From: a virus
Taxonomy: Duplodnaviria; Caudoviricetes
DNA length: 37,427 nt
IMG/VR virus record: IMGVR_UViG_3300020045_016684
Location: 1 to 37,427 of that record
Reading direction: 5' to 3' (one strand)
The position numbers and the translations under genes were made by a program. The notes beneath the pieces are model-generated. The model did no database searches. It had not been told where the DNA came from and worked only from the letters and a program-made list of their open reading frames with translations. Positions 1 to 37,427 of the stretch are shown in pieces; position 1 is the stretch's first letter, and every line of letters starts with the position of its first letter.

Positions 1-121
1 AGAGTGCTTATATCACAATTGCAAATATTGTCAAATTATGTTTAATTTACTTTTATTTTTTGTGTATAGCACTCATTTTATATCCGTATACAATAAATAT
101 ACATAATTGTCAATATATGCA
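1..121. repeat. Direct terminal repeat, copy 1 (circular assembly overlap)
   Basis: Identical to 37307-37427. Confidence 0.97.
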
Positions 122-227
122 AAATCACATCATATTCGATCGAATCCCGAAGTCGATAAATGTACAAAATATACAATCTGCTCTCGATGAGCTCTGATAT
201 TCTGATACATTCTCAATAATTTTCTAA
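117..227 (+). CDS. Small hypothetical protein (36 aa, code 25)
   Basis: ATG 117 to TAA 225-227 with one internal TGA; MQNHIIFDRIPKS... Confidence 0.45.
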
Positions 228-239
228 CAGCTAAGACAA

Positions 240-482
240 ATGAACAAGCAAACACTAAAAATCCACCAATGGATTCAAGATGATATCAATTGGATCAAAC
301 TAAAAAGCATCACAATATGAGACATATGAGCCTATCAAAATATACGACACAATAATTCTATTCCTTGAAGAAAGATACTTGGTCGATTGGTTGAGGATTA
401 TGCCATCATAGCATGAGATACTCGTGATATTATCAGTATCAAGCTCGATCTTTTGTCTCCTGTTGAAGATTCTATTTCCTAA
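240..482 (+). CDS. Hypothetical protein, possibly DNA-binding (80 aa)
   Basis: Open with TGA=Gly; lies directly before the replication gene. Confidence 0.65.
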
Positions 483-492
483 AATATCCAAC

Positions 493-1299
493 ATGGCTAA
501 GAAACGACTTGTCGATACCAAATTTTGGGAAGATAATTATTCGTCTAATCTCGATCCAATAGAAAAGCTTATGTTTCTCTATTTCTTGACTAATAGCCAT
601 ACAAGTATTTGTGGCATATATCAGGTTCCCCTGAAAATTATCGCTGTAGATACTGGAATAGATCGAGACATGGTATTAAAAATACTCTCTCGATTCGAGA
701 GAGATTGAAAATTGATTTTTCGAGAAGGTTGGATCGCTATAAAAAACTTCATTCGTTACCAAAATGAGTGATCTCCAAAAATAAAAGCTTGAATCGAGAA
801 GGAATTACTATGAGTACCTAAAGAACTCAAAGTATGGGCTTTATGAAGCCAAGAAGAAGAAAAAATACAAGAATCTTGAAAGGGTATCGATACCCTATCG
901 CATTCTAATAGAGATTCTAATTCTAATTCTAATTCTAATTTGAATAGAGATTCAGAAAAACAACAAATTTCAGAAGAGAATTTTTCTCCTACAGAAAATG
1001 TTCCAATTCCTGAAGATTCAAAAGTTCCGCTGGCGGTTCGTGAAAAATCCGAGTACGAATTATCCATGGATTTCCTTAAAAAAATCTCTGAACATATTTT
1101 CGATCCAGTTATCGAGACTCCAGATTTCGCAGTTTGACACGAAAAAGAATGGCGTGCTTTCCTAGCTCACTTTATCGAAAAAGATAAGAGTGGGAAAATG
1201 AAGGCAGAACGTGAAAAGACTTTTTCTATAAAACTCCGATTCCTCAAGTGGCTCTCCAACTGATACGGATCTAAACAAAATTCCCATATTACCTATTAG
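493..1299 (+). CDS. Phage replication initiator / replisome organizer
   Basis: N-terminus MAKKRLVDTKFWED..LDPIEKLMFLYFLTNSHTSICGIYQVPLKIIAVDTG is typical of phage replication-initiator wHTH domains; SNSNSN linker; joins ORF-track pieces 424-708 and 940-1137 across TGA. Confidence 0.8.
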
Positions 1300-1302
1300 C
1301 CT

Positions 1303-1728
1303 ATGCAATCACTCATACTACCAAAACAACTCACTGCAATCGACTGCTACGATGGAAAAACTCACTACAAGGACTGTACTACTGAATATGCATCTCAATT
1401 CCGAAAGGCTCAATTCCAATCTCTGGATGGATCGATAATCACAGGATCAAATATCCGAACGATTCGAACTGCAACAGGTATTGAATTCTATGAACAATTA
1501 ATCCTTCCAAAACTTCCTCAGAATGAAAAGGATCTCTATCTACGGATCAGATCAAATATTCCAGAGAAAGTCGAAAAAGAATTGAAGCTAGAACAAATAT
1601 TCTCTGCAATGGATCGAAAAAAGAAAGAAGATAATTATTACCGAGAAGTATCTCGTCCACTCAGTGAAGCAGAAATAGAACGTAGACGTCAACAGGTGGC
1701 GAGTAGACCAAAGCTCCAATTCACATAA
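1303..1728 (+). CDS. Hypothetical protein (possible replication accessory)
   Basis: 141-aa ORF directly after the initiator. Confidence 0.8.
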   Translation: MQSLILPKQLTAIDCYDGKTHYKDCTTEYASQFRKAQFQSLDGSIITGSNIRTIRTATGIEFYEQLILPKLPQNEKDLYLRIRSNIPEKVEKELKLEQIFSAMDRKKKEDNYYREVSRPLSEAEIERRRQQVASRPKLQFT

Positions 1729-1737
1729 TTTTCTCCC

Positions 1738-2301
1738 ATGATCTCAACTCTCCAAATAGAAACATCTGCGAAAAAATATTGAGTAAAGATCTGATCGCTT
1801 AAATGCAAAGTTTTACGTCACATCTACCAATACAAACGAGTGAAGGCAACGGATCTCGACAAGGCATTTCTTTTCTCCGCTGGGCGAAGAGCGAATGATC
1901 GCAAGAAGCGATGACTCCTCGAAGTACTTGATTCTGAACCGATTATGAACAATGCGAATGATCGGTTTTTTTATTCCCTCACTGACCTCGGGAAAAAGAT
2001 AATGACCGATGCCAGTATGCAAACACTCGCTAATCAAGAAAAACTATGAAGCTCTATGCAACAAAACGATCCGGAACATTCCGATCCTCTCCAAGTCTGA
2101 AAGATTCAATCGATACCCTCCAAGAGTGAGACTTCGTGATATCAATCGAACGAGAAAAAAGAATTAGATCATCCAACCAAAACAGATTCTACTGGGGGGT
2201 ATTCTTACCAGTCCTTACAGAAACCTGATACACCGTTGAAGAGTTGCACGAACTTTTTAAAAAAATGTTTCTCTCGAAAACCAAACGACTCCCAAAGCTA
2301 A
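1738..2301 (+). CDS. Hypothetical protein, possible winged-helix N-terminus
   Basis: Open with TGA=Gly; reads through the ATGA junction at 2046-2049 to TAA 2299-2301. Confidence 0.6.
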
Positions 2302-2429
2302 AGAGAAAAACAATACTTGTAACAAAATCTACTACCGAACTCTCCACTATCGAGTGGGAGGTATTCATTCAGCAGATCAGAGACTTTGTAGCTCCACTAT
2401 GATACATACTTCCTATCCCCAACGAATAA
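2046..2429 (+). CDS. NinB/DUF1367-like recombination protein
   Basis: RSSNQNRFYWG...LHELFKKMFL...STTELSTIEWEVFIQQIRDF..GYILPIP motifs. Confidence 0.8.
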
Positions 2430-2530
2430 TGCCTAAAAAGAAATCCATTTCTATTCTCAATCCAAATTCTCTTGTTCTCAAGAGTCTATTCGATCAAATC
2501 GATAAAGATCGGCGAAACAAAAACAAATAA
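2429..2530 (+). CDS. Small basic hypothetical protein (33 aa)
   Basis: TAATG-coupled to the upstream gene. Confidence 0.45.
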   Translation: MPKKKSISILNPNSLVLKSLFDQIDKDRRNKNK

Positions 2531-2550
2531 TTTATTCCTAATATTTTTCC

Positions 2551-3498
2551 ATGAATGCTAAAATCATTTTTCCAATCATTCTGATCCTCATTACTGCATC
2601 CTATGCAGTCTATACATCCAACTTTCCAAGTACAACCGATCAAAAAACAACCACAGTTGAGTCCTTCCGAATCCAAGCTCAAGAAGCTAGAGATCGAGAG
2701 ATCAAAGCTCAAGAAGATCGTCAGGAAAGAGAAAATAATCTCTCTCGTGCTATCTGGCTTGAATGCTTTGATACAGCAACTTCACAAACTGGAAGCAACT
2801 TTGCAAGCCAACAAAAAGAATCTTACGAGTGCTGGAAGCAAAACACAACAAATATAAATTCTTGAACGGTCACCTCTGCCAATTCAGAGGTTCCCCCCAA
2901 ATGAATAATATCTAAAACCAATGACATCACTATAAATCTACAACAAGCTACTAGAAACATATCCAATGCTAATGCCATACAGTGAGCTAAAAAAATCAAC
3001 TCAAAGCCAGTGGAAAAAATACCAAAAGCAAATTCCGTGACTCTGGGAACTACAAGTAGCAGTGGAAAATGAATCGAGGGATCAAAAGGAACGAGCAAGG
3101 AAATATTTTGGAAATCATATGAGATAGCAATCGTAATGATAAAAAAATGGGAATGACTTAGGCTACACGCTTATCCTGATTATGGACATTGTTCAATCGG
3201 ATATGGATCATATGCAAAGTCTTGCGATGAAGTTATAACTATTAGTGAAGCAAATAGACGACTATGAGTAACTGTCCAGACACTCATAAAAACAGTCCAA
3301 AAAGATTTTCCTACTCTCACCTCGAAGCAACAAGGAGCTCTCGCATCTTTCGCATACAACTGTTCGAAGTGATATAAGAGCCTCGCAAAGAATTGACTTA
3401 AGTATCATGGACAGTGGTGCAAAACAGCCTGAGGAATAAAACTTGGAGGACTAGAAAGACGGAGGGCGGAAGAATCAGCAATTTTATTTAAAAACTAA
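2551..3498 (+). CDS. Signal-anchored protein with C-terminal GH24 (phage-type) lysozyme domain
   Basis: Hydrophobic N-terminus (IIFPIILILITASYA), long linker, then IKKWEGLRLHAYPDYGHCSIGYG...QQGALASFAYNC...GLERRRAEE. Confidence 0.85.
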
Positions 3499-4444: not shown

Positions 4445-4446
4445 AT

Positions 4447-4701
4447 ATGCCTCTATCTCTCAAAGACTGCTGGCATAAACCATACTACCTAGAAGACGGA
4501 TCAGTTAATACTGAGTGCCGTCTTTTTGTTTGAGTTTCAGAAAAAAGAAAACAAGAAATTCTTAAAAATTACCACCAATGATTAATCCACCAGAGAAAGT
4601 CTGCAAATCTTGCGAGAAATGACCAAGGCACACAGGAAGAACTCTCTGCCTTGTATGTATTCAAATCAAGCAAAAAGAAGTCGCAAAGGCTCAAAGAATA
4701 A
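4447..4701 (+). CDS. Hypothetical protein
   Basis: MPLSLKDCWHKPYYLEDG...; reads through ATGA at 4578-4581 to TAA 4699-4701. Confidence 0.55.
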
Positions 4702-5240
4702 AGAATTTAGAGAAAGCCAAGTTAAAACGGCAAAGTATCAATATTCGATTAAGCTGAGTTGATGAATCTGACCGATCCGAGATCCGAGAAAAAATCCATG
4801 AAACTATCTGACCTTTTCTAAAAAAGAAGCAGATAACTATAAAACTTTCCCGGTGAAAGGTAAAATCAGAACTCAAAAAACTTGAAGACAAAGCAGATGA
4901 TATCTGGAGTAAAGCAGTAAAGATAAATTACAATAACAAGTGTGTGTATTCCCAAGAATCAACTAATCTTAATTCTCATCACATATTCACTCGAAGTAGA
5001 CTATCTACAAGGTGGAATATCAACAATGGTATGTGTCTAACTGCAAATCATCATACATGGTCGCAAGAGTTCTCCGCCCATAAGACCCCCGCAAAATTCA
5101 TGGTATGGCTGAGAGAGCTCAAGTGAGATAAATTCATTGATGATCTCGAAAAGAAATCTCGAGAAGTATTCAAGCCAACAGTTGAAAACCTCCAGGCAAT
5201 AATCAAAGAACTGGAGGATTTTATTAAAAATAATTCATAG
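4578..5240 (+). CDS. NinG/Rap-like HNH endonuclease
   Basis: N-terminal CxxC..CxxC; ADDIWSKAVK...NSHHIFTRSRLSTRWNINNGMCLTANHH. Confidence 0.8.
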
Positions 5241-5883: not shown

Positions 5884-6012
5884 GAGCGTGTGGCGGAATA
5901 GGTAGACGCTCGGGGTCGCAAGCCTCGAAGAGACTCGGTAGCCTCTGGGATAAGTCCTATAAATCCGTTCGACTCGGAACTTAATTTGCAAGTTCAAATC
6001 TTGCCACGCTCT
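5884..6012 (+). ncRNA. tRNA-like RNA (GCA anticodon, U73) with a ~60-nt three-hairpin variable region
   Basis: Acceptor GAGCGTG/CACGCTC; D-arm GCG-GAATAGGTAGA-CGC; arm CGGGG-TCGCAAG-CCTCG; T-arm GCAAG-TTCAAAT-CTTGC; no encoded CCA. Confidence 0.75.
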
Positions 6013-6229: not shown

Positions 6230-6685
6230 ATGACAAGACCTATTAAATTCCGTTGAAAAAGCATAGAAACCTGAGAATGGCTGTATTGAGATTTATGGAG
6301 AAGACAACAAAACGGACAAGGAACTATTTATACATTCATTACTCATACTTGATGACGAGTCGAGAGAGTAGATCCAGAAACAGTCTGACAATACACCTGA
6401 TTGCCTGATAAGAATGGAATGGAGATATATGAGGGGGATATAGTTAGAGTGGATATTTGAACAAAAAGATTCCCAAAAACTGTAAATAAAGAAATTTCAT
6501 ATTTCGAAGAGTATTGAATTTTTTGAATGAAATGACATCAATCATATTGAGAAGTTGATTTTACTATTCCTATGGGTAGTCATTGAAGCTCTACAAAATA
6601 TTCTCCATATTTACTCTCTTCCTACTGGAGAAGAAATATTGAAATCATCTGAAACATCTACGAGAATCCTGATTTACTTAAATAA
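6230..6685 (+). CDS. YopX family protein
   Basis: RPIKFRGKSIETGEWLYGDL...VDPETVGQYTGLPDKNGMEIYEGDIV...IEIIGNIYENPDLL; most conserved Gly are TGA. Confidence 0.92.
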
Positions 6686-7759: not shown

Positions 7760-7787
7760 TTGAAATTACTATTCCATTCGATATAAT
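7760..7787 (+). promoter_or_regulatory. Sigma70-like promoter of a moron gene
   Basis: TTGAAA-16 nt-TATAAT. Confidence 0.55.
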
Positions 7788-7820
7788 GTATATGTCCTTT
7801 ATTTCTTAATTTTTTCTCTT

Positions 7821-8042
7821 ATGTTAAAATGTCCACATTGCAATAACCTTATACTCCAATTTAGTATGGAGGCATGCACTATCAATCAGCCTGCTGGCAA
7901 TACTCAATGGAATTGAGTTGCTTATAGTTGTTGAAATATTTCCTGCATGAAAGTTATTTCCGTTGGAATTGATCCAATGATTCTCAGAAATGAAACTGTA
8001 GAAAATACAGTTGAAAAGCTTATGCAGAGACTCGGTAGATAA
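7821..8042 (+). CDS. Small zinc-ribbon protein (moron)
   Basis: CPHC...CGNISC; has its own promoter and terminator. Confidence 0.7.
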
Positions 8043-8598: not shown

Positions 8599-9339
8599 AT
8601 GAAAATACATGAAGACGAAATCTTATGAGGTAGACCACTCAAAGAAGTTTCAGAAAGAGAGATAGATTCTCCTATTTGAAAGATCGAGGAAACACCAGAC
8701 GAAACCACAAACGAAAAACCACGAGAAATAATCCGTGACGATAAGTGACGAATAGTCGTACCAATCCCACAAAACACCAACAAGAATGGAAAGGCTGGGC
8801 GACCTACCGACTACCGACCAGAATATGCGGATCAACTACTGGAATTCATGAGCCGAACAAGTCACGAGGTTGGAATTAATAAAACATATTACAAAGCCTG
8901 AGATTGATCGTATGACGGTTGAGTGAAGAGTGAAAAGCATGTCGTCATTACTGAGACATACCCAACACTGCAACGATTCGCTTTTAGTAAATGAGTTCTT
9001 GTTGAAACACTGAATAACTGGGCTGATGCAAAATATCCACCAGATTATCCTTGACTGGATGATGAGTGACAACCGCTTGCATGAAAACATAAACATCCTG
9101 AATTTTTCGATGCCTTAAGGTTGGCAAAGCAAATCCAAGAATCAATACTCGTTGAGAATGCTATGAACGGCAATTATCCTTCTCAGTTTGCGATATTCAT
9201 CGCCAAGAATAACTTCGGTTACTCAGATAAAAGCGAGCTCGATGTTAGCGATAAGACTGCACCTCGCAAAACTGCACTTGATAAATTTACTTCTCTAATC
9301 TCTTGAAAAAATGATCAAGATGAATGATCCGGAATTTAA
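8599..9339 (+). CDS. terS: Terminase small subunit (P22 gp3-like)
   Basis: GRPTDYRPEY..PTLQRFA..HPEFFDALRLAKQIQE..FAIFIAKNNFGYSDK; precedes terL. Confidence 0.85.
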
Positions 9340-10915
9340 GGCACTCCTTGAAGTCCTAGAAGAATCGACTCCATCCGAAAGGGTGGAGTTTTTAAAATGG
9401 AGGAATAAGGACTCACAAGAGATTCGAGCCAATAAGTTATTGTTATGGTGGTTCTATTATTTCCGTCATAACTTCAAAGGATTACTTGCAGACTTTCACT
9501 ATGATTGGCTATATGAATTAGCATGATATAAAAATATTCTCATTAAGTGATTCCGTTGATCTATCAAGACTGAGATGGTAAAAGCATATCATATCAAGTG
9601 TATATGCGATAAACAGAATAGCTTCAAAGTATGGCAATCGTTCGATTCGTGAGCGAGTGAATGACATATGCGAAATATGGCAAAGATGCTTATCTCTAAA
9701 TTCATTAAAAATGATTATGGGGAACTCTATAAACTTTCCTGACCTCGTGACGATCTCAAGAAGAAGAGTATGGGAAATTGGAATACTGAAAACTGAATTC
9801 GTATGTCTGCCCGATCTCTTGGAGAAAAACTCCGAGGAGAATGAGAATACGAGGATAACGATGATTGATCATCTCGTCCTGACTGTCTCACTCTCGATGA
9901 TATTGATGTGTCTGACTCTGTGAGAAATGTAGAGATTATTGATAAAAACATTGCAAAGATCACTGGAGAGACTATCGGTGCGATGAGTAAAGAAGTTTCT
10001 CGCATTATATTCTTGGGAAATGTAATCAACTCTGACTGAGTAGTGCCACGATTTGAAAGAGAAAAAGCCAATGATCCGAATTGGGTTGTTTTTGTACAAC
10101 CTCTTTTTAATGAAAAATTACCATCTGATATAAATTTTCTACAAGAGACCGATCTTGTTCCTTGGGAACGAATTACTCAAGATATGGTTAATTGGGATTT
10201 TTTCACTATCGAACGAATCAAAAAGATCCACTCGAATGAGTGATGAAAGTCATTCCAACAAAACTATCTATTGGTTCCAATAGTTTCATGAGATCTATTC
10301 TTTACGAATCAAACAAAGCTATTCGTTCCAGATTGGAAAGCTGACGAAAAATACCCTGATATACGAATATATCGCCCTGGTCGTTATTGACTTTGTATTG
10401 GTGTAGATACGAGCAAGTGATGACTTACCGGTGATTACTCCACTGTTTCAGTGAGAGATGTGCAATGAAATCTATATGCATTCTATAGGGGTCGTGTGCC
10501 ACCTGATATACTCTATGACGAGATTATCGTTCGACTATTTGAACTTGGATATGTTGGTCGTCTTGCCATTGAATCCAATAACACTGGTATTGCTACAATC
10601 AATAAGGCCAAAGAGTGAAAGTATCGGCAATACTTATATTCAGAGAAAGTTCTTGATGAACGAACAAACAGACAAACCCAAAAAATCGGTTGGAATACTA
10701 ACGGCAAAACTCGCCCACTTATGCTTTCAGAGTATGAGGAGGCCGTGAGAAATTGAGCGATTACCGAGGTGGATGCACGAACGAAAGATGAGATGCAGAC
10801 GTTCATATATAACGATGATTTCCGACCTGAGGCATCAAGCCAAGGTTACGATGATTGTATCATTGCTGATACGATCAGTTGGCAAATGCGAAAATTTCCT
10901 TTTCTATCTTTTTAA
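9311..10915 (+). CDS. terL: Terminase large subunit
   Basis: Walker A GFRGSIKT, LRG, Walker B LTLDDID, nuclease IGVDTSKG..GDYS, AIESNNTG, YDDCIIA; the start may be 9320. Confidence 0.93.
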
Positions 10916-10926: not shown

Positions 10927-11325
10927 ATGCAGAAAGTCACTGGATATGACAAGAAAAAGCAATCATTCGTAGAGAAAGGAATGAAGACAAACGATACTGA
11001 TAGCTTTGCACTCGATGAAATATATATCGATATATACAGCGTGCATCCTTATATTACTCGCCTTATTGCAAGACGAATGTATATGCTCGGGTGGACTACT
11101 ACCGAGATAATCTGATGACATCTTGAGGATAATATTTTTTATCCGAAGTCCACTTCCTCATTTTCCCAAGAAATAGAATTACAATGATTCCCATTGAAGT
11201 ATGCAGGAATAGACAAGGTCTATTGGAAAAAGTTCTGCAAAAAGTTTCTAGCTAGGCATTATCCAAATCTATTATGAAAATCACAAAAGATCAACAAACC
11301 CAACTCGCTAATAGAGCAAAGATAA
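10927..11325 (+). CDS. Hypothetical protein between terL and portal
   Basis: Open under code 25; reads through ATGA at 11274-11277. Confidence 0.65.
11149..11185 (+). promoter_or_regulatory. Putative late promoter, copy 2 (portal)
   Basis: TCCACTTCCT, with TACAAT starting 31 nt after the motif start. Confidence 0.6.
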
Positions 11326-12419
11326 TCGATCTTGCGAGCCCTGAGTATCTACGAAAGAAAACAAACGACAACTATAAGTTCATCGTTAAGAAAATACTCG
11401 GGCTTGATGTAGGAAAAACCACTATGACGAATGGTGTAGATATGGCTCAACTCATTGTAGAGAGTGGGCTATATTCTGCCATATCTTGAGCTTATAAGGA
11501 TTCGGTATGAAATGTAGATCTTATTGATGAGACTGAAATGGGTAAATTTATTGATTCACTTATTGCCACTGGTATTGCTGGATGGAAAGTAGCATCGAGC
11601 GATGGAAAGACAAAAGAAATAGTGGCCGTGCAATCATCATCATTCTTTGATACGGTCGTTGGAAATGACACAATATATACCGAATTCAAGATATATAAGA
11701 ATGAGAGTAGTACCTACATATTCACTCGTTCATTTTTCACAGGATATAATGAACTCAAGCTGTATGTTACAACTAGTACCGATCTATCTGATGCAAAAGA
11801 AGTTCCTTTGACAAAAATATCTGAAACTAGTGGATTTGATCCAATAGAAAAAACAACAATGAGTGTTCCAGCATTCCAAATGATAAAAAAGTCAGATAGA
11901 ATATTTGAGAGTGTAAAGACTCTTGTGGATTCGGTTGACCGTCGTATGACCGAGATAGAAATAGAATTCCATAAGCATCTTGATGCAAAAACCATCTACA
12001 AGAATATCGATATCAGTCAAAGTGCAATAGATACCGCAACTGGTAAGATTCTCAAGGAGAAGATGTGAAATGAGTTCTTTTGTTCTAGTTCCGATGCCGA
12101 TATTAAATACGTTGTGAACTCTAATCCTATGATTGATAAGGCTATGGAGTTCATTGATAGAGATATTAGACGTATATCCGCTATCTCCAAAGTTCCTCTC
12201 GATTATCTTGGTGTATCAAGTGCAGATGGTGCAATAGGTGCCGAGTCACGTAATGCCAAGAATGCCATATTCTTTGCAAAAGTTCAAAACATACGGGATT
12301 TAATCTCAAAGGTATACAATGATCTCATGTGATCAACACTTACTTTCTGACCAATTATAGGCTATGCAGATGATAAAAATACATGAACTCAGTGAGGCGA
12401 TTCGTGAGCAACAGCTTAA
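11274..12419 (+). CDS. Portal protein (probably SPP1-like)
   Basis: 381 aa between terL and scaffold; IRRISAISKVPLDYLG..GAIGAESR motif. Confidence 0.8.
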
Positions 12420-13238: not shown

Positions 13239-13271
13239 TCCAAAAAATAATATTTCTTAATTTTTTCTCTT

Positions 13272-22197: not shown

Positions 22198-22198
22198 T

Positions 22199-23152: not shown

Positions 23153-23153
23153 G

Positions 23154-23190
23154 TCCACTTATTCATTTTCTCAAATAGTCATAGTAATAT
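23154..23190 (+). promoter_or_regulatory. Putative late promoter, copy 6 (tail fibre)
   Basis: TCCACTTATT, with TAATAT starting 31 nt after the motif start. Confidence 0.6.
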
Positions 23191-23210
23191 CGTTTTTATA
23201 AAAAACAACT

Positions 23211-25118: not shown

Positions 25119-25145
25119 ATTTTTAATATCGGTAACTTATAATTT

Positions 25146-25433
25146 ATGTGAATGGAAGTAGCAAGTAGCATCATCAATGAAACAGGATCTGCAGTAACAA
25201 AAATAGGTGCAACAGAACGTACACTATTCGTATGAGTTATGATAGCATTCTTGATGTTTTCTGGATTCTTTATGTGGCTATCATCCGAGAGTCAAAGAGA
25301 GCAAAGAGATACTTTCTTAAATTCTATGGATCGTAGGGATGATAAGATGAGCGAATCACTCAATAAAGTTACTGATGCACTCAATAAGAATACTGAAGTA
25401 ATGATCGAAATTAAATCTCGAATTAAAAATTAA
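25146..25433 (+). CDS. Putative holin (single TM, BhlA/UviB-like layout)
   Basis: One TM (LFVGVMIAFLMFSGFFMWL) and a coiled-coil tail; starts ATG-TGA-ATG. Confidence 0.55.
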
Positions 25434-25434
25434 T

Positions 25435-25764
25435 ATGACCTGCTCTACTATTCAAAAAAGCATCTCGAAATTCAAGTGAAATACTCTTATTCGTTCTTTC
25501 GTTTTCAAGGACAAAAATGGTACTGCAATCAATCTAACTGGTTCAGTTATCAAGTTTTCAGTCAAGAAAAACGTATCAGATACGACTCATGTTCTCCAGG
25601 AGAATCTCGTTATTACTGATGCACTAAATGGGAAAGCATCAATATCGGTAGATCTTAGTATGGAAGTAGATGTCTATGTATATGACTTTCATTGGATCAA
25701 ATCCGATGGAAAAAAGGAAACGATCGAACTATGAAAACTCACTATTACTAACTGAGCCACCTAA
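25435..25764 (+). CDS. BppU-like Ig-fold virion protein
   Basis: KDKNGTAINLTGSVIKFSVK..TDALNGK..YVYDF. Confidence 0.75.
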
Positions 25765-26123
25765 TGGAAACCCCTATCATACTCATTGAAGAGACTACTA
25801 TAGTCACTATAGATGAGGAAATCACATCAATTACGATTGAAGAGACTACCACAGTGATCGAATCGCAAGCAGAACAAGGGCCATCTTGACCAAAGTGAGA
25901 TCCTTGAGACGGAATATCTGTAGAGTGAGAAACCCCAACCGGTGTAATAGATTGAATCAATACAAATTACGCTCTCGAACATACTCCAAGTAACTGAGTA
26001 AGACTCTATGTGAATGGAATGAGGCAAAAAGAACCAGGCGACTACACCTTATCATCCAACATTATCACTTTTATTTCCCCACTCATTCCGTGAGATATTC
26101 TTCTTGCAGATTATAACTACTAA
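25764..26123 (+). CDS. Fibre protein with short collagen repeat
   Basis: GPS-GPK-GDP-GDG (three Gly are TGA); ETPTGVIDGINT..LYVNGMRQ..DY domain. Confidence 0.8.
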
Positions 26124-26134
26124 CCTTTCATTTT

Positions 26135-26839
26135 ATGACAACTCGTATTCGACGATGACAAATACAAGACGGTGCTATAGATAACTCCAAGCAGAGTTTC
26201 GGGACTCCTTCTGCTGGAACTGATGCTGTCATTCTTAGCTATCTACAATCCTACGTGGCTGATGCTATCGGTGCATCCAATCTCAAGGATGCTGTTCGTG
26301 TAGCAACTACTGCCAATGGAGCAATTGCAACAGCATATGCCAATGGTCAAACAGTCGATGGAATCACTCTCGTTACTGGGGATCGTATTCTCCTAAAAAA
26401 TCAATCAACAGGCTCTGAAAATGGTATTTATACCGTGAATGCCTCAGGTGCTCCAACTCGTGCTAGTGATGCAGATAGTGCGACAGATATTGCTGATACA
26501 GTGGTATATGTTTCTCAAGGAACTGCAAATGCTGATACAGGGTGGAAACTTGTAACTGACTCAATTGTACTCGGTACAACAGCCCTTGTATTCACTCCAC
26601 TTACTGTATCAAGCCTGACAAGTGGAAACTTCTCTATTAATGAAACTCCTGCTGGTGCAATTAATGGATCAAATACTGCCTTCACTACTGGAAATGCTCC
26701 AGTAGCAGGAACTGTACAAGTATTCTTGAATGGATTACTCCAGACTGCCACCGATGACTACAACATATCAGGATCAAATATTACCTATACCACCGCTCCG
26801 ATTGTTGGTGATGTACTTCGTGTATCTTACATTAAATAA
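26135..26839 (+). CDS. Head or tail decoration fibre protein
   Basis: KDAVRVATTAN..DGITLVTGDRILLKNQSTGSENGIY; C-terminal ETPAGAINGSNT..VFLNGLLQ..DY domain. Confidence 0.8.
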
Positions 26840-26841
26840 TT

Positions 26842-26970
26842 ATGTCTACTCAACTCGACTGACGACAAATAAAGGATGATTCTATACCTGCTTCCAAGAT
26901 TATTTGATGAGTTGGTTGAGGTTCTGGAATATCAGAAGATCTTGCCATTGCATATTCAGTAAGCCTATAG
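26842..26970 (+). CDS. Small virion protein (42 aa)
   Basis: MSTQLDGRQIKD...SEDLAIAYSVSL. Confidence 0.6.
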
Positions 26971-26971
26971 T

Positions 26972-27493
26972 ATGAAAACAATTCCTATAACATATCAGTT
27001 CGACGCTTCATTAAAAACTGTCACGTGTACGGATTTTTCTGCTATAGAAAAAATTGCGATTATCACAAATCTCACAACAGGAGAAATGATATATCAGTTC
27101 AACAACCCTTTGAAATCTGGAACACTCACAGAAAATACTCTCACACTTGTATACGACACTACCACGATGAGTGATACGGATGAATTGCAGATAATCATAC
27201 ATGGGAAACTTCCAGAGTCTGATACTGGTAGAATTCTTGTAGAAGATGAAGTATCGGTACTACTCAAGGCGATTCTCACAACTCTACAAATGCCGAGAAA
27301 TGCCGATACCTGGACGAACTCTGATCGAGTAAATATCGTTGCAGGATGAGTAAACATAAATGCTAATCAAACTCTTGCAACACTCACAACCCTTGGAACG
27401 ATACAAAATTTCAACTGACAACAAGCACATATTATGAGTGTAGCAAGTGAGATAAATGCTTGGTATAACGGACAACGTTCAACTATTTCTTAA
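26972..27493 (+). CDS. Virion structural protein
   Basis: YQFDASLKTVT..IITNLTTGEMIYQFNNP..LTLVYDTTTMSDTDELQI. Confidence 0.75.
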
Positions 27494-27506
27494 TTATTTT
27501 TTTTAT

Positions 27507-27812
27507 ATGGATCAAGAATTTGATAAAGTGGAAGCTTACGCTTATGAAAAAATACTTCCAGATGGAAGTAAACAAAATGCATCACTCATCATTAGGAGTC
27601 GTGTAGTAGCATTTACTGATGATAGTGAGGTAAATAATCCAACAGGAGATGAATCAGCATATTTCTATGGAATATCTATAGATGGTGTTCGTGAGCAACT
27701 CACAACCTTCCAGCCTTGAGAGGAAGGATTCAAGCCAATGACGAAAGAGGAGGCTAAAAAATTCTTGCAAGACGACATAGATCAAACACTTCTTAATTAC
27801 TGAATTCAATAA
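27507..27812 (+). CDS. Hypothetical protein
   Basis: 101 aa under code 25. Confidence 0.7.
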
Positions 27813-27813
27813 T

Positions 27814-29436
27814 ATGGCTAATAATTTCGTCAAATGACTTGATCTACTTATGTGGAGACCTACACAACGTGATATGAATAATGCACATGGTGCAGGAGTT
27901 TCTTGGTGTTCTGATAAAAGATCAGATATATCAAGAAATCCATTCTTGTATCAATTGTTTTCTAATACTGTACTTAATCGATGGAATATTGTCACAAAGT
28001 GACAATGACAGGCTACAAATCCTGGTCTTGGTGGTACTTTTGGTGCTGGTGCAACCAGTGAATTTGCTCCATCACGAGCACTTGAAGGAAATATTACTAC
28101 TGGATGTACTGATACGAAAATAGTTACAAGTACTGTTATTACAGCGATAGGAACAAATATGCTGGCGAATCGATGAGGTAGTGGGGATTACGGGTATAAA
28201 ATCCGAATCATCGGAAAAACAGCAGGAAAAATTGAAGAGCGTTTTATCATCGGAAATACTGGCGGAACAACTCCGACTGTATGGCTTGATAAGCCTCTCA
28301 CATTTACTCCAACAACTGGTGATACTTATGAGATTCTTGGTGGTGCTGTATATATGCTTGGTGCAGGAGTAATTGCAGCAACTTCTTTTCGTTCGATGGA
28401 AGTGGCCGCTAATGCAGTCACATCACTATCAAATACAAATCTTCCAGGAACAATCTCTACAGATTCTTATATGACTGCTCTCGATGAGCAATACACGCCA
28501 TATAATATAGAACCTTGATGTGGAATGATTCTTGGAACATTTCTCTATGATGATGGAACTGTAACGGATAGATATGCTCTCGTTGCTACTGGTAGTGGTG
28601 CATCATCACTCACGGGACAAGTATCTCTCGGTGATGCTGTAATCATTGCGAATGAATATAGAAATTTTCAAATTCGAGTGGTTCAAGATACAACAACTCC
28701 GTCAGCAGTATGACAACGAAGAATTATCGCATCTCATACCGCTTGACCATCTCCAGTCTATACACTGGGTACAGCTTGGACAGTTACTCCATCTACAACT
28801 GCAAAATATGTAATTGAGATGCCAAATCTTCTATTACTCCGATCAACAGCCACTGCAACTCTATATGTATACAACTACAATAAGGAGACCATCAACAATG
28901 GAACAAATAACATTGTTGCTAATGCTTGGAGTACAGCATATTTTGGCACTCCGTCAGGTGCTGTTGGTGCTGGATGTATGATTGCACCATCATTTGGAAT
29001 TCAACCAGATATTGGAAGAAATGCCAGACATTCAGTAATCTATTTTTTCCGTGGTGCCAATGGAACGGTAGTCGACACTCTTGATATTGCTGGTGCGATT
29101 GCTGGAACTTGGGCATCCACAATCTTATATGATGGAAACCAGATTGCATTCAATACTGGTGCCTGTGGTGATTATGCTCCTTGCGACAATGAAGGACGTA
29201 TGTTCTATATTAATGCCTACGTCGCATCTATCAATAATCAGATCTATCGATTCGATGTACAAAATAGAGTACTAAGTCCATATACTCCGACTGCAATGCT
29301 ACAATCTGGAACTGCAGCAGTATGAAATCGTATCGCTACCTATGCAGTCATAAAAAGCACAACCGAAAAATACACGTCATTATTTCTGCAGGCACATCTT
29401 GCTTCGTCTGCATACGAAATAATAACTCAGATATAG
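27814..29436 (+). CDS. Large beta-rich virion protein (540 aa), possible second adhesin
   Basis: Joins ORF-track pieces 28525-28713 and 28819-29325; propeller-like repeats. Confidence 0.78.
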
Positions 29437-30557: not shown

Positions 30558-31028
30558 ATGATATTTAATCAATGAAAATTTCCAGAGTGTAAATGATATG
30601 GTTTTTTGACAGCAATATCTATACATAATCCAAGTGTTGATCCAGCACCAATTATAAGCGCAATCAATGAAGACTATAGATGACTCATTACAAATCGTAA
30701 TGCTTGAGAATTTTTTAAATCTCGTTGATTCATTAAAGACTATGAGGTAGTTCCAAGACTCAAGGCAAAGGCTCTCCTGAATCGTTGAATCCCTCTCATA
30801 GCCAATATCTCGTGAGTTGATTGGAAGGCTACAGCAAAGCCACCATATAGGGCGGTATTTGATAGGCATATAGGCTCGCATAACTGTACTCTTGTAGACT
30901 ATGATAAGTATACAAGACTCATAAAAGTAGATAATACATACTGAGAAGAGTGGTGAGACAAATGATCATACTACTTACACGCTGATGATCTCGATAAGGT
31001 AACAGAATTTTGCAAAATAATTTTATAA
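30558..31028 (+). CDS. Papain-like (C1) cysteine peptidase
   Basis: NQGKFPECKGY (Q, C)..GSHNCTLVDYD (H)..DNTYGEEWGDKGSYY (N). Confidence 0.82.
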
Positions 31029-31031
31029 AAT

Positions 31032-31436
31032 ATGCTTCATAGAGAATTCAATAAAACATACATCTGACAACCATATAAAGAGCCTTGAATGGATACTATA
31101 GAATGTGTGGGTCTACCAAAACTCTATTGTCGTAAATTATGATTTCCAATTGGAGCATTTGGATGATCTGCAATAAATGGGTGGGAGACTGGTTGTCCTT
31201 TTGATGACAAGTGGAAACGAGTAGAGTATAAGCCTTGACTCTATCCACCACAATGAGCGATACTTTTTTGGAGTGAAAAACGATGCAAATATGGGCATAC
31301 TTGAGTTTCCAACAAGTTCTGTAATGCAAATGTACTCAGATATATTGATAGTAATGGAACAGGCCATAGGGACGTAATAACAGCAAGATTTACGGATTAC
31401 AAAAATTTCCTTGGTTGGTTTGAGCGTATTCGCTAG
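31032..31436 (+). CDS. CHAP-domain amidase/endopeptidase (endolysin candidate)
   Basis: ECVGLPKLY..GSAINGW..PPQGAILFW..YGHTGV..DSNG..FLGWF. Confidence 0.85.
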
Positions 31437-32347
31437 TTGAGTTTTTGCATCTCATCAATTTGATCTTTGAGTCATAAATGGAAATAGATTGCCGTAGTGG
31501 TTATCTGTGAATGTCACATAGCCTGTTGGATCGAGTAGATATTCACTCACTTTTTTACACAAAGTGAAGCATATGAATGTCTGAGTAAGTGCGGATGAAC
31601 ATTCATACCAAGAGTACGAGAAATTCGGTTGAAAACGTCGGAAATAGCCCGAGATTGTAACTCTCAACCATAAGCATCACAAAAGACTGTCTCTCCAGGC
31701 AGTTTTTTTCTAATCTCGAACCATCCTTGCAATGTGTCCTGGAGTTTTTTAGGGAGTGGGATAATTCTATCTTTCTGGCCCTTCCCTTCTCTGATTATCA
31801 AATGATCCTTCTTACAGTCATCTATTCGTAGATTTGCCACTTCTTTTCGTCTCATGCCACTATACACCATCGCTTCTATCATGACATAGTTCCTCATATT
31901 GTAGAACTTATTATAGGTATTGTATGTCATAAGTGCAGTATAGAGCCTTTCTAGTGATTCCTCATCCATTGATTTTGGTATAGCCTTTGCAAGTTTTGGC
32001 TTCTTGAATTTGGTAATATGAACGTCCTGGATCACTTCTATAGATTTCAAAAAATCAGTATATTTTTTTATTGATATGTGATACTTTGATCTTGTTGAAT
32101 TGCTGAGGTTAGCATGCTTTCACTCGAAAAGTGAGAGATACCCAAATTTGAGCTTGATAATATTTCCAAAATCACTTGGGCCATCGAAGCTACAATTCCG
32201 AATGAAAAGGTAAATGAAAGAATTATAGAATTTCATTGTATCTGGAGTAAGACCCTCACTCTTCATTTGCAGTACAAATTCTGCAAGATAATAATTTTTT
32301 ACAATATTCTCTGGGATATTATGGAGCGGATCAACAGCTTTTTGCAT
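31433..32347 (-). CDS. int: Tyrosine integrase
   Basis: SGMRRKE (R), GKGQKDR (K), HPHLLRHSYA (HxxR), MGHSQITTTAIY (H, Y); 304 aa under code 25. Confidence 0.95.
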
Positions 32348-32490: not shown

Positions 32491-32537
32491 TGGTGGCGAG
32501 ACCCGGACTTGAACCGGGGACACATAGATTTTCAGTC
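32491..32537 (-). mobile_element. attP core: 3' part of tRNA-Phe(GAA)
   Basis: Reverse complement GACTGAAAATCTATGTGTCCCCGGTTCAAGTCCGGGTCTCGCCACCA has the anticodon loop, T-arm and CCA; it lies just upstream of int and the 5' half is absent. Confidence 0.9.
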
Positions 32538-32718: not shown

Positions 32719-33084
32719 TTATTGGTAAATACACTGACAGGATCTCTCTATCATATCACGAGTTGCAGAGGGAAAAAACAATCGGATCTCATCGATCGTA
32801 GTAAATCCATCTTCTATAACTTTTTTGAGTTTTCATTTTGGAACCAACATCTCACAAGCAATCTCTTCTGCTCGTTGCTCGGAGTACTTGTTATCTTCCC
32901 CACACGAATCATCTATACAATGTCATATCTCGTGAGCTAGAATCCTCTCCTTATCGAATCCAGTGAGTGAAGTACATATTCCTATGCACCATGTATCTCA
33001 CTTTCTCATACTCGCACCAAGTATCTTACTACAAAAATTAACAGAACGAACAATGGTATTATCTGGGATATGCAGTTTAAACAT
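32719..33084 (-). CDS. ImmA/IrrE family metallo-endopeptidase
   Basis: ERILAHEIGH (HExxH)..EQRAEEIACEMLVP. Confidence 0.88.
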
Positions 33085-33151
33085 ATTTTTTGGATAGAAA
33101 TAATCCTGAGTATACAACCAATTATTAATTTTTTATTAATTCTTGAGAGAT

Positions 33152-33664
33152 TTATTTTCAATGACAATGTTTAAATTTTTTACCACCTCAACAATGACAT
33201 TTATCATTTGGTCTTATTCACTTTGGTGGAGTTGTATTTACTTGTTCAACAAAATCTATCTTTCTCCTTGATGGAAGACAAAAAGAAAATACAGTTTGTC
33301 ACTCATGAAGGGATAATGCAAAATCTCATTGTGAGATAATATCCATTCAAATAAGAACATCACAATCTATTTTTGCAGTTATTCAACTAAGCTTAAGTGT
33401 TCATCATACGTTATTCGGTAAAATAACATTTGCTGAATATATTCAGCACTCCTCTTGTCATCATACTCAACTAATATTTCATATATCTATTGGTGATAAT
33501 CATAGTTTTTTTACAAAATCCTCAGATATACATGATATCGTTGCTCAAGTATCCCATAGTGCAACTCACTCTGATATAACTTTTTTTTCGTCATCCACTA
33601 CTTTTATATTTGTAAGTGGTCTGTTGGATATTCAACTATAGTGAATAGTAAAAGCATTAGGCAT
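33152..33664 (-). CDS. Retropepsin-like aspartyl protease with C-terminal SEC-C motif
   Basis: ALWDTGATISCI, DVLIGMDII, RPNDKCHCGGGKKFKHCHGK. Confidence 0.88.
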
Positions 33665-33911
33665 ATGTTACTGTAATGATAGGGTTAATCCATACAGTTG
33701 GTTGTTCTCCGCATAATGTTACGCAAAAATTTCAAGCACCGTATGTTTTCCTACCAATTACAGCAAGGTTCTGCTCGTCGTCAGAAGTTTGAATAACTTC
33801 CTTATTCACGATAAGCATATATTTTCATTCATAAGATTCAATAAGAGACTTCTTGTTATCAAGAAACCATTGTTTATTTTCTCTCACGGATGTAAACTTT
33901 GTTACTGTCAT
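33657..33911 (-). CDS. DUF5678-like small protein
   Basis: NKQWFLDNKKSLIESYEGKYMLIVNKEVI; overlaps the protease start by 8 nt. Confidence 0.72.
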
Positions 33912-33954: not shown

Positions 33955-34332
33955 CTAGACATCTTTAAAAGCTTCAATCATCTTCATTATTGCATCTTGC
34001 TTGTTCTTGTCGGTAACTCACACCTCTGCAAAGAATGCTACCTTTGGATCTTCAATACTTCCCTGCTCTACTCCGAGATCCTCACGAATGAACTCTTCCA
34101 TCTTACGAACAAATTGATCTTCGGATATTCCATAGGCTTCGGCCATTCGTTGATACCCTTCGTATTTAGCAAAATGTTTTGATCCTCATATATAATTTCC
34201 CCAGTAACTAATATTATTACCTCATAATTTTTTTAATAATCATTCCGATGTCATTAATAGCTCTTTTTTAAACCACCTTAATGTTTTTTTTCTTACATTA
34301 TCGGGAATGCTTTTATTTAGCTCAACAATCAC
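33955..34332 (-). CDS. Putative immunity repressor (divergent XRE/ImmR-like HTH)
   Basis: ISYWGNYIGGSK..YQRMAEAYGISEDQF; first gene of the leftward operon, upstream of ImmA; the GTG start is uncertain. Confidence 0.65.
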
Positions 34333-34338
34333 GTTTGT

Positions 34339-34355
34339 TATCTTAAGATAAGATA
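34339..34355. promoter_or_regulatory. Operator palindrome 1
   Basis: TATCTTA-AGA-TAAGATA. Confidence 0.6.
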
Positions 34356-34431: not shown

Positions 34432-34681
34432 GGTTTTGTTAGATCGATATGGACACATCGATTCTTGCAACTTAACATCTCAGGACTTCTACTCCGAAAT
34501 TCCCTTACGATCCCCACTACAGTATGACCGACAACCCTGTCACGCGACATACCAGATAGAACGATACAAGTAGGATAGGTATAGAACAATCCCGATGGAG
34601 CCTATGGCTCTTTATTTTTTGTCCATGTGTTATCTCAAAATACACTTATTGAGATTATTCCAGATCATCCCAGAAATAAAC

Positions 34682-34712
34682 AAAAAAAATCCCCTCATTT
34701 CTGAGAGGTTTT
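34682..34712. terminator. Possible bidirectional terminator
   Basis: A-tract, CCCCTCA-TTTC-TGAGAGG, T-tract. Confidence 0.5.
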
Positions 34713-34758
34713 CTTCAACAAAGAAAATATATCCAATTCCAGTAAAAAATCAAATCCT

Positions 34759-34982: not shown

Positions 34983-35219
34983 ATGCGAACCCTAATATAT
35001 TACATCATCAAGCAAAACAGATTGTCAGAGCCTATTGCAAAAGACTTAGGTAAAAGGAAAGAGACACTACAAGCTCAGATCTTACGGGGTAATCCAGCCT
35101 ATGACGAACGAATGAGGATCACAGATTCTTTTCATCGTCAATCATCACTCGATATCCACCCAGTCAAGCTCTGGTCTCCAATCCGAAAGGATCAAGTGCA
35201 TCTCTACATACAACACTAA
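34983..35219 (+). CDS. Hypothetical protein, possible Cro-like HTH
   Basis: IAKDLGKRKETLQAQILRG; early rightward gene. Confidence 0.65.
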   Translation: MRTLIYYIIKQNRLSEPIAKDLGKRKETLQAQILRGNPAYDERMRITDSFHRQSSLDIHPVKLWSPIRKDQVHLYIQH

Positions 35220-35457: not shown

Positions 35458-35459
35458 TT

Positions 35460-35651: not shown

Positions 35652-35653
35652 CT

Positions 35654-35752
35654 ATGTGAGCAATAATCTTACCACTCATTCTCGTTCTCCTTTGAATACT
35701 TCCAAAAGCAAAACAACAACACAAAGAACCAACACACATAAATCTATTTTAA
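35654..35752 (+). CDS. Small membrane peptide
   Basis: MGAIILPLILVLLGILPK... Confidence 0.4.
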
Positions 35753-35761
35753 TTTTTCTAT

Positions 35762-35926
35762 ATGAAACCAATAAGCATTTCTAGGGATCAATTCCTATCA
35801 CTTCAAAATGAAGTCAAAGTAAAAATGATAAATCTTGGACATAAAATAGAAAAATGATCGATAGTCTACTATGTGAATCCATCGTTACGCTACATTTCCC
35901 ATAAACCCTTTAAATTCATTTACTAA
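35762..35926 (+). CDS. Hypothetical protein
   Basis: 54 aa under code 25. Confidence 0.45.
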
Positions 35927-35936
35927 CTTTCCACCT

Positions 35937-36551
35937 ATGAACCCTACTACTGAAAACGCATTCCTTCCAACTGACTACAAGGCACCACCAAGTAATTCTC
36001 GTTACATGAAATTCATCGATGGAGAAAACAATTTTAGAATTCTTTCATCTCCTGTTGTTGGCTGGTCTTATTGGGATAAAACACTTGATGGCAATACAAA
36101 CATCCGTCTTCCATATACGCAAGAGGCCTATAAAAAAGCCGTTGAATTCGCTTCTAGGAATCCAAAACAAGAAGATAGAGATGTGAAACATTTCTGGGCC
36201 ATGGCAGTATGGAATTATGCAAATGATCGAGTTGAAATTCTCGAGATCACACAAAAAGGAATTCAAGTTACACTTACTGAACTTTCTAAAAAGAAAGGAT
36301 GGGGTAATCCAGTAAAGACATACGATATTTCTATCGATAAATCAGGAACTGGGCTAAAAACAGAATATGCAGTTACTGCTATTCCACCTGAAAAGCTCAG
36401 CGATGCTATACTCAAAGAAATTGATAGTACATACATAAATTTAGATGCACTATTTGTACTAGATGGAGATCCTTTCAAGATAGTAAAATCAGAGGATGAA
36501 ATAAATTCAGAAATAGACTCTAGTCTTGATGATATTTTTCCACCTAAATAA
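35937..36551 (+). CDS. T4 gp32-like single-stranded DNA-binding protein
   Basis: YMKFIDGENNFRIL..FWAMAVWNY..WGNP..YDISIDKSGTGLKTEYAV; acidic C-terminal tail. Confidence 0.75.
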   Translation: MNPTTENAFLPTDYKAPPSNSRYMKFIDGENNFRILSSPVVGWSYWDKTLDGNTNIRLPYTQEAYKKAVEFASRNPKQEDRDVKHFWAMAVWNYANDRVEILEITQKGIQVTLTELSKKKGWGNPVKTYDISIDKSGTGLKTEYAVTAIPPEKLSDAILKEIDSTYINLDALFVLDGDPFKIVKSEDEINSEIDSSLDDIFPPK

Positions 36552-36578
36552 TTCACTCTAACCAACACAATACACACT

Positions 36579-37103
36579 ATGTCTATCTACACACTCCCCA
36601 CCGAAGTATCAGAGGCTATGGATAAATTCTATAGCCTTTTTGATTCTGATTCATGAGAACTCATAGGAACAGAAGAAGAACTCGCACTTGTTCAATCAAA
36701 TCTTGATGAGCTTGCAAACAAAACCAATGAGACTACCGAATGGTATCTTAAAGATCGAGCCAATCGCATTGCATATATTGCAGGGATTGAGTCAGAGATC
36801 GAGAGACTCCAAAAGGTCGTTGCAAGAGAAAAGAAAACAGTTGCAAGAGCTGAGAATCTCCTTGAGAGAATATTCGGTCGTATCTATGAAGGAAAGCCAA
36901 TTGTATTTGGAAGTTTTAAACTTTCATATCGAACCAGTGAAGCTGTTCTCATAGAAAACGAACAAGGTATTCCAAAAGAATTTCTCCGAATCATTCCTGA
37001 AAGTTCAGCACCTGACAAGGTAGCAATTAAAAAAGCTATCAATGATGGTGTAAAAGTACCTGGTGCAACTATCGAAACTCGTCAATCATTCCAGATCAAA
37101 TAA
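36579..37103 (+). CDS. Siphovirus Gp157 family protein
   Basis: IESEIERLQ..FKLSYRTSEAVLIE..IPKEF..PDKVAIKKAINDGVKVPGATIETRQSFQIK. Confidence 0.9.
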
Positions 37104-37121
37104 AGCTCTAACCTCAACCGT

Positions 37122-37154
37122 TCCCCCTGTCGGTGGTCAATACAGGGGATTTTT
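37122..37154 (+). terminator. Intrinsic terminator after Gp157
   Basis: CCCCTGT...ACAGGGG followed by ATTTTT. Confidence 0.7.
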
Positions 37155-37259
37155 ATTATTGAGAGCATCCTGACTCTGTCAGGTGTTCGCTAAAGACCTA
37201 TACTCCGTTTTATTTTTATATGAAATAAAAGACAGCGGAGCTTGGGTGCTCTCAATAAT
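37155..37259. ncRNA. Branched stem-loop element (GAGAG-stem family)
   Basis: ATTATTGAGAGCATCC / GGGTGCTCTCAATAAT enclosing CCTGAC-TCT-GTCAGG, CTCCG/CGGAG and TTTTATTT/AAATAAAA. Confidence 0.6.
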
Positions 37260-37306
37260 TATTTTGATTTTCTCATATCATATTGCGAAAATTCTCCGCC
37301 TATTAT

Positions 37307-37427
37307 AGAGTGCTTATATCACAATTGCAAATATTGTCAAATTATGTTTAATTTACTTTTATTTTTTGTGTATAGCACTCATTTTATATCCGTATACAAT
37401 AAATATACATAATTGTCAATATATGCA
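37307..37427. repeat. Direct terminal repeat, copy 2
   Basis: Identical to 1-121. Confidence 0.97.

Follow-up and report, generated by a model that had tools for sequence, protein, structure and literature searches.

The window analysed here, that is the whole 37,427-nt stretch of the IMG/VR virus record IMGVR_UViG_3300020045_016684 (36% GC), most probably represents the circular 37.3-kb genome of a temperate siphovirus of Gracilibacteria which use genetic code 25. In this reading, whose probability we put at roughly 0.9, TGA encodes glycine throughout the phage genes, integration takes place at a tRNA-Phe gene, and the host's tRNA-Gly(UCA) is used for decoding. Three independent marks converge on one family of Gracilibacteria: the rare code, a 47-nt attachment core present exactly in six genomes, and related prophage genes.

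TGA is read as glycine throughout the genome

The original prediction held that this phage uses code 25, and a comparison of coding density under alternative codes was proposed as a check. Coding cover, taken here simply as the cover by open reading frames (ORFs) of at least 100 aa and not from Prodigal, was best when TGA was read through: it rose from 0.282 under table 11 to 0.863, with 0.456 for TAG and 0.590 for TAA read instead. In a set of 58 genes picked by hand from the list of code-25 ORFs, TGA accounts for 313 of the 795 glycine codons and is present in 52 genes, including those for the integrase, ImmA, the repressor and replication. Its share of glycine codons is 49% in the early module, 36% in the head, 33% in the tail, 57% in the lysis region and 52% in the lysogeny module.

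Profile searches favour glycine as well. Sixteen of 27 genes compared under codes 25 and 4 had a PHROG match, and the best score was higher under code 25 in 14 of them, the difference in the other two not exceeding 1 bit. The large terminase subunit, TerL (9311-10915, plus strand, 19 in-frame TGA codons), scored 112.7 versus 57.2 bits on phrog_38, and YopX (6230-6685, plus strand, 14 in-frame TGA codons) scored 107.7 versus 72.8 bits on phrog_98, while the Pfam matches of the retropepsin, CHAP and tape-measure genes disappeared under code 4. When TGA was set to each of the 20 residues in turn, glycine came top on the YopX profiles by 12-20 bits (on phrog_98 the runner-up reached 88.0 bits), and it was again the top residue, by 6 bits, among 13 tried on the terL profile; tryptophan was the lowest-scoring residue on both phrog_98 and phrog_38.

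Codons were also compared directly at the DNA level, using 129 distinct alignments to 194 related loci. Window TGA codons (739 aligned pairs) stood opposite GGN 237 times, opposite TGA 83 times and opposite TGG only once, which is far from the predominant alignment to tryptophan that had been named as the outcome speaking against glycine. Window TGG codons (371 aligned pairs) stood opposite TGG 146 times, GGN 7 times and TGA once, in agreement with the claim that conserved tryptophan is written TGG. It had further been claimed that TGA falls at conserved glycines of unrelated families. We find this to be so in TerL (codons 80 and 83 in GFRG), YopX (KFRGK, VGQYTG, IGNIYE), the collagen repeat GPS-GPK-GDP-G, the retropepsin DTGA, the ImmA HEIGH and the C1 WGDKG motifs, but the glycine run of the scaffold protein is only partly written with TGA. 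With ORF cover, profile scores, residue substitution and DNA-level codon pairs all in support, the assignment of TGA to glycine is shown as well as sequence permits.

Other expected features of the genes were less informative or of a different origin. All genes do end in TAA (44 of 58) or TAG (14 of 58), but this outcome follows from the calling procedure. Shine-Dalgarno motifs are indeed scarce, as a Shine-Dalgarno-like 4-mer precedes none of the 58 genes and random genome positions give a mean of 5.0 (P(0)=0.008); as the figure is 0.27 after shuffling of the same upstream bases, their lack reflects G-poor leaders. The expected absence of a phage tRNA-Gly(TCA) was confirmed: ARAGORN found no tRNA in the whole window, and the one tRNA-shaped RNA detected with Rfam has no UCA loop. 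Neither a suppressor tRNA nor a release factor of the phage was found by ARAGORN, Rfam, Pfam or PHROGs. The phage thus lacks a UCA tRNA and the five genomes of the host family that were searched possess one (see below), which upholds the proposed reliance on host decoding.

We also considered TGA as a context-dependent stop at gene overlaps, and rejected this idea, as there is no clear excess in code-25 loci. Three ORFs (1738-2301, 4447-4701 and 10930-11325) cross a TGA that overlaps the ATG of the next gene and then continue for 83, 39 and 15 codons, respectively. Among the overlaps of that frame in 720 kb of code-25 loci, 22 of 37 are ATGA, compared with 324 of 679 starts. The overlap of the G345 homolog of ORF 10930 with the start of the portal gene is in the other frame, and ORF 1738 has no relative in the 204 genomes of the host order or in IMG/VR.

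The attachment core points to one family of Gracilibacteria

The temperate design proposed for this phage is supported by an intact tyrosine integrase, an adjoining attP core and a match to ImmA. The integrase gene (31433-32347, minus strand; PF00589, E 4e-32) encodes the full catalytic set (R166, K189, H253, R256, H279 and Y288), and the glycine of its MGH motif is encoded by TGA. Just upstream of it lies the predicted 47-nt attP core (32491-32537, minus strand), which is identical to the 3' portion of tRNA-Phe(GAA), running from its anticodon stem through the terminal CCA. The ImmA/IrrE-type metallopeptidase gene (32719-33117, minus strand; HEIGH motif) matches PF06114 with 25.6 bits, which is above the cut-off in code 25 only.

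A scan of 185,579 genomes for the exact core, which had also been suggested as a check, returned six, all titled Candidatus (Ca.) Gracilibacteria, and in each of them the match lies inside an intact tRNA-Phe gene. All six require TGA read-through, their coding cover rising from 0.37-0.59 to 0.87-0.99, so that exact matches are confined to code-25 Gracilibacteria. They belong to one GTDB family, in which 23 of 89 genomes match the core with at most 3 mismatches; the same 23 are the only core matches of at least 94% in a near-match scan of the 204 genomes of the host order. No exact match of the core was found in IMG/VR. The host, predicted as Gracilibacteria or Absconditabacteria, can thus be narrowed to a single GTDB family of Ca. 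Gracilibacteria on the strength of the attachment core and the related prophages; the core matched no record labelled Absconditabacteria.

The decoding equipment of these hosts is in accord with the code of the phage. A tRNA with anticodon UCA and with an acceptor of G1-C72, C2-G71, G3-C70 and U73 was found in all five exact-match genomes that were searched, and we take this acceptor, by tRNA identity rules, to be of the glycine type. Three of the five gave a single release factor, which is of the RF1 (PxT) type. This agrees with the loss of prfB reported in the available text of PMC6851277.

Related elements occur in the same order of bacteria, with 31 of the 58 window genes matching in 121 genome loci. 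G345 carries a syntenic head-tail prophage at the end of a 683-kb contig, and G074 a prophage of about 37.5 kb at tRNA-Phe, with a serine recombinase. Orthologs of the integrase are present in 7 of the 204 genomes. In G479, int follows an intact tRNA-Phe, and a second copy of the tRNA 3' part, an exact repeat of 60 nt, lies at a distance of 9.7 kb; in G447 the arrangement is the same, with the second copy (50 nt, 86%) 14 kb off.

What we infer of recombination, induction and infection is the following. Int would recombine the attP core with the host tRNA-Phe gene so as to restore that gene at one end, followed by int; this product is modelled on the layout seen for the orthologous integrases in G479 and G447. 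At induction, the ImmA-type protease would cleave the repressor. Host ribosomes, supplied with tRNA-Gly(UCA) and with RF1 only, would translate all phage genes without any code switch, and the match between phage and host codes may have arisen from a lineage evolving inside code-25 hosts.

The genome is circular and carries a full set of siphovirus modules

Positions 1-121 and 37307-37427 (no strand assigned) are 100% identical, which gives a circle of 37,306 bp; IMG/VR classes the record as having direct terminal repeats. The repeat is likely an overlap left by the assembler from a circular template, and an excised prophage circle would yield the same. The order of genes across the join, gp157 and then the replication gene, recurs in G443:C84. 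A siphovirus set is present, comprising both terminase subunits, the portal (recognized via a relative), the capsid, the tail tube and the tape measure, and no tail sheath match was found among the genes scanned.

Points against this reading and alternative explanations

Several observations weigh against the reading of a complete temperate phage of code-25 Gracilibacteria. As regards the code, the matches of the adaptor, zinc-ribbon and small terminase subunit genes score higher under code 4 by 0.3-1.6 bits (the small terminase subunit, in Pfam, by 1.6), and on the terL profile glycine leads aspartate and serine by just 6-7 bits. As regards the host, the 27 spacers of G345 give nothing better than 12-nt chance matches to the window, and the order-wide genome scans, in which two candidates were scored per genome, revealed neither a spacer match nor an integrated copy of the phage. 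For other integrase orthologs the site is tRNA-Cys or a 5' part of tRNA-Arg or tRNA-Met, and the tRNA-Phe elements with an orthologous integrase are islands of 10-14 kb, not tailed phages. The repressor and Cro assignments are for the most part positional. CheckV gives the record a completeness of 41%. Finally, in a neck or tail-completion gene (15428-15798, plus strand) the frame changes by one base within a run of five A residues (15466-15470): the ATG frame ends early, and the alternative frame is the one matched by homologs from G345, G040 and G074; in G345 (135 aa) and G074 (120 aa) the homologous ORF is a single frame. This may be an assembly error or a real lesion, and the sequence may accordingly be a defective or mis-assembled variant. 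Short matches in G248 and G431 were considered as spacers and rejected, as the DNA around them is AT-rich and intergenic and has no arrays.

One alternative is that the record comes from a prophage that is decaying, excised or assembled only in part, and not from a viable phage. The frame break and the CheckV estimate speak for it, and so does the 121-nt repeat, in so far as a prophage circle would also produce it. Against it, all modules are present, a blastx comparison with the ORFs of related loci (extending to those window genes that have relatives there) revealed no further frame break, and relatives of the integrase reside on contigs of 37,149 and 37,215 nt, sizes close to that of the G074 prophage at tRNA-Phe. 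We infer that code-11 gene calls have lowered the CheckV figure, and we take it to be too low because all modules are present, the gp157-replication order is as in G443 and the contigs with integrase relatives are 37.1 and 37.2 kb long. The claim that the phage is complete is founded on the circular assembly and the full gene set, and the CheckV estimate and the broken neck gene stand against it. A decayed prophage is in our view unlikely, and it would leave the conclusions on code and host untouched. It is still less likely that the host is another, unsampled code-25 lineage, either Absconditabacteria or a different family of Gracilibacteria. Some tail genes are closest (82%) to those of G511, a genome of the same order that is not listed in the core-matching family, tRNAs are conserved in their 3' parts, and the sampling of genomes is sparse. 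Nevertheless, every exact or at least 94% match of the core among the 204 genomes of the order falls in one family, which also supplies the nearest relatives of the replication, Gp157, integrase, decoration and terL genes (in G443, G166, G458 and G345).

Two further explanations concern the code itself. The phage might be a code-switching one with a standard-code host, in the manner of the Lak, crAss, Garnet and Topaz phages, with recoding serving to time late genes. Such phages do exist, as the available text of Borges et al. (10.1101/2021.08.26.457843) describes, and the lysis-region genes do have the highest share of TGA (57%). But the integrase, ImmA, repressor and replication genes need read-through no less (52% of glycine codons in the lysogeny and 49% in the early module), the phage has no suppressor tRNA, and its attP core matches only code-25 genomes. 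With recoding in the lysogeny module itself and without a suppressor, the idea fails, and we regard it as highly improbable. Reading TGA as tryptophan (code 4), the assignment found in Mycoplasma-type hosts and in many recoded phages of the gut, might seem to be encouraged by database homologs, which show W at 23% and G at 22% of the terL TGA sites. Yet W also stands opposite ordinary GGN codons there in 15%, as would be expected from recoded relatives translated with table 4; we thus dropped this tally, with its apparent tie, as a translation artefact and used the DNA-level codon counts. Given the single TGG in 739 pairs, and a tryptophan content that would reach 4.0% of residues, code 4 is scarcely credible.

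A tRNA-shaped RNA of 129 nt that probably does not decode

Between the early genes, at 5884-6012 on the plus strand, Rfam detects a tRNA-shaped RNA (RF00005, 37.3 bits, E 1.8e-4) which was missed by ARAGORN and by the original prediction. In a constrained fold, its acceptor, class-II-type D arm and T arm are intact and the discriminator is U, and about 57 extra bases, folded into four hairpins between the D and T arms, replace the anticodon and variable arms. This departs from a canonical tRNA, which has one anticodon arm, with U33, and a variable region of the normal kind: here there is a C at position 33, no UCA loop and no encoded CCA. The z-score of its free fold (-1.39) is not significant. 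We considered it as the UCA decoder of the phage and rejected it, as it has no UCA loop and its acceptor has an A2-U71 pair. On these sequence features the RNA is likely non-decoding, and as it has neither a UCA loop nor CCA, the conclusion about host decoding is unchanged.

The outer-frame pattern of this RNA recurs in at least 118 IMG/VR loci in a partial scan (about 280 estimated), with unrelated middles of 65-95 nt, which indicates that this type of RNA is common in phages; the pattern was absent from 202 further loci. GenBank phages contain nothing that matches the middle of the present RNA. Species 1 and 2 RNAs of T4 (rnaC and rnaD), likewise small phage RNAs of similar size, are the closest named analogy, and rnaC shares a T-arm-like terminal hairpin with it. 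In contrast to both, its class-II-type D arm is complete and its gene is not part of a tRNA cluster, and no sequence likeness to them is seen by eye. As a guess, it could be a non-decoding decoy or a processing handle. One may go further and combine three ideas into a single claim: that the phage stands for an unnamed family-level lineage of temperate code-25 siphoviruses of about 37 kb, that its integrase and attP offer a gene-delivery route into uncultured Gracilibacteria, and that the 129-nt RNA is an expressed decoy which shields the host tRNA pool, including the tRNA-Gly(UCA) needed by 52 of the 58 phage genes, from anti-phage tRNA nucleases. As a joint claim this is speculative and we hold it to be doubtful.

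Relation to known phages and significance

Lambdoid and SPP1-like temperate siphoviruses are known for ImmA/ImmR-type control and for tyrosine integrases which target tRNA genes. The present phage resembles them in its gene order, in the divergent repressor/Cro layout and in the tRNA 3' attP core beside int. Phages of Candidate Phyla Radiation (CPR) bacteria have mostly been linked to hosts through short spacers, and an unusually precise host anchor is what sets this phage apart, as code-25 phages and prophages of these bacteria have already been published (see the available texts of PMC10746230 and 10.1101/2021.08.26.457843).

Liu et al. (mBio 2023; PMC10746230), in the text available, report on 57 phages predicted for Gracilibacteria together with 12 prophages; every prophage uses code 25, and 34 of 38 Gracilibacteria phages longer than 20 kb are not clearly recoded. 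The present phage is like those in having dense in-frame TGA codons, a large gain in code-25 density, an integrase with structural genes and no code-shift machinery. It differs in that their host links come from spacers or prophage calls, with the term attP absent from the main text of that paper, whereas here an attachment core is given. A circular, fully recoded phage with a defined attachment core is uncommon in that set, as far as its available text goes, although the tables of the paper may already include this record. In the accessible part of Borges et al. (10.1101/2021.08.26.457843), a code-25 clade with about 90% of genes recoded is read as fully adapted to a code-25 host. This clade and our phage are alike in using TGA for glycine and in the extent of recoding (about 90% versus 52 of 58 genes); the phages described there come from the gut, some with a predicted Absconditabacteria host, and ours is assigned to Gracilibacteria. 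The groundwater CPR phages of Wu et al. 2024 (PMC11310336; see also PMC12911398) include, according to the available texts, complete genomes of 36-55 kb and Gracilibacteria prophages, and are mostly temperate. The circular Gracilibacteria phages highlighted there are compatible with code 11; the present genome, in contrast, is unreadable in it. The available text of PMC11310336 also states that no CPR phage has been isolated so far. Our literature search, in which subscription papers were mostly outside coverage, returned no code-25 Gracilibacteria phage with a mapped attP and no description of the 129-nt RNA class.

The outcome is a reference genome with a concrete attB/attP/Int set and a marker for lysogens in metagenomes. 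Protein collections use the wrong table for such phages, and completeness estimates may be unreliable for them. Knowledge of code 25 itself is not changed by this genome.

A single terL query gave no IMG/VR relative, and an alignment query gave 23 IMG/VR loci. The best terL matches in 50,697 GenBank phage records show less than 30% identity over at most 38% of the length; by this measure there is no close cultured relative. Integrase matches in IMG/VR are distant (at most 33%), with one match of 45% from a partial scan of metagenome contigs. One IMG/VR relative in TerL and the small terminase subunit, L184, has no in-frame TGA in the aligned parts, as the sole case among 18 distinct terL alignments, and is possibly a code-11-compatible member.

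Further genes and minor observations

The early region, all on the plus strand, starts with a gene resembling replication initiators or helicase loaders (493-1299; phrog_6251, E 9e-22; 75% over 121 aa to G443), followed by a NinB-like recombination mediator (2046-2429; phrog_72, E 1e-15) and a lysozyme with an N-terminal hydrophobic anchor (2551-3498; PF00959, 54.1 bits in code 25 and 43.3 in code 4). Relatives of this anchored early lysozyme are found in G074, G114, G230 and G440. A NinG/HNH-like nuclease gene (4578-5240; phrog_5034, E 5e-5) lies ahead of the 129-nt RNA.

The head and tail genes, again on the plus strand, begin with the small terminase subunit (8599-9339; phrog_3064, E 4e-20; PF16677 slightly below the cut-off). 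The portal gene (11274-12419) is assigned by position and has no family match of its own, but its 86%-identical relative P0098 has PF05133. A likely scaffold gene (12621-13238) is also placed by position, with 31% identity to the same gene of the G345 prophage, and it precedes the major capsid gene of the SU10_MCP family (13272-14417; PF17236, E 1e-34). The tail tube gene (17083-17685) is of the type of long non-contractile tails (ESM Atlas features 0.95; TM 0.58-0.66 to Phage_TTP_17/TTP_1 clusters). The tape measure protein (18324-21305; phrog_27166, E 5e-22) has 993 aa and 41 TGA codons. Genes for the tail tip, fibre and virion accessories occupy 21307-29436, with BppU_N, tail-fibre and decoration matches and 66-82% identity to genes of G360, G458 and G511; within this stretch Dit and Tal are assigned by position only. 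Peptidase and CHAP-like genes at 30558-31436 (phrog_16701; a weak PF05257 match), which are likely to act in lysis, have relatives (37% and 56%) in G005, an exact-attB genome.

In the switch region, a DUF5678 gene and a retropepsin/SEC-C gene with 18 TGA codons (33152-33911, minus strand; PF18929, PF13650 and PF02810, the retropepsin matches being all lost in code 4) sit between the likely repressor and ImmA, and the 5' end of this pair matches many genomes of the host order. The likely repressor (33955-34344, minus strand) is assigned by position; it has no family match, a single ORF in the prophage region of G027 is 27% identical to it (E 8e-4), and its structure model is helical, with a pLDDT of 42, too poor for a fold search. 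Divergent from it is a likely Cro-like gene (34983-35219, plus strand), assigned by position only and without a family match. Scanning the switch region for promoters gave a result close to chance (17 vs 12.7). Farther on, an ssDNA-binding-like gene and Gp157 (35937-37103, plus strand; phrog_1607, PF05565) are 59-68% identical to genes of G230 and G443.

Upstream of immA (33109-33156) we noticed an AT-rich motif, TTAAT-N5-ATTAA, ahead of a -10-like hexamer; matches to it of 89-94% occur at five or more intergenic sites of G004, a genome of the host family, and it is likely a shared promoter or regulator site. Many host-order genomes also contain the intergenic motifs at 7782-7823 and 34674-34716, and part of the former is repeated exactly ahead of the capsid gene (13251-13273).

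Among the related elements, the islands G479:C2 50333-60149 and G447:C6 41802-55994 contain, by eye, restriction-modification-, reverse-transcriptase- and transposase-like ORFs. In the region G345:C1 646312-683334, a likely Cas12a locus, so named from the look of its protein, stands with the 27-spacer array directly ahead of the related prophage; contig G345:C2 ends in a second terL-bearing region. The code-25 prophage at tRNA-Phe in G074 holds a tRNA-like gene with anticodon TTA, detected by ARAGORN at G074:C1 71054-71127.

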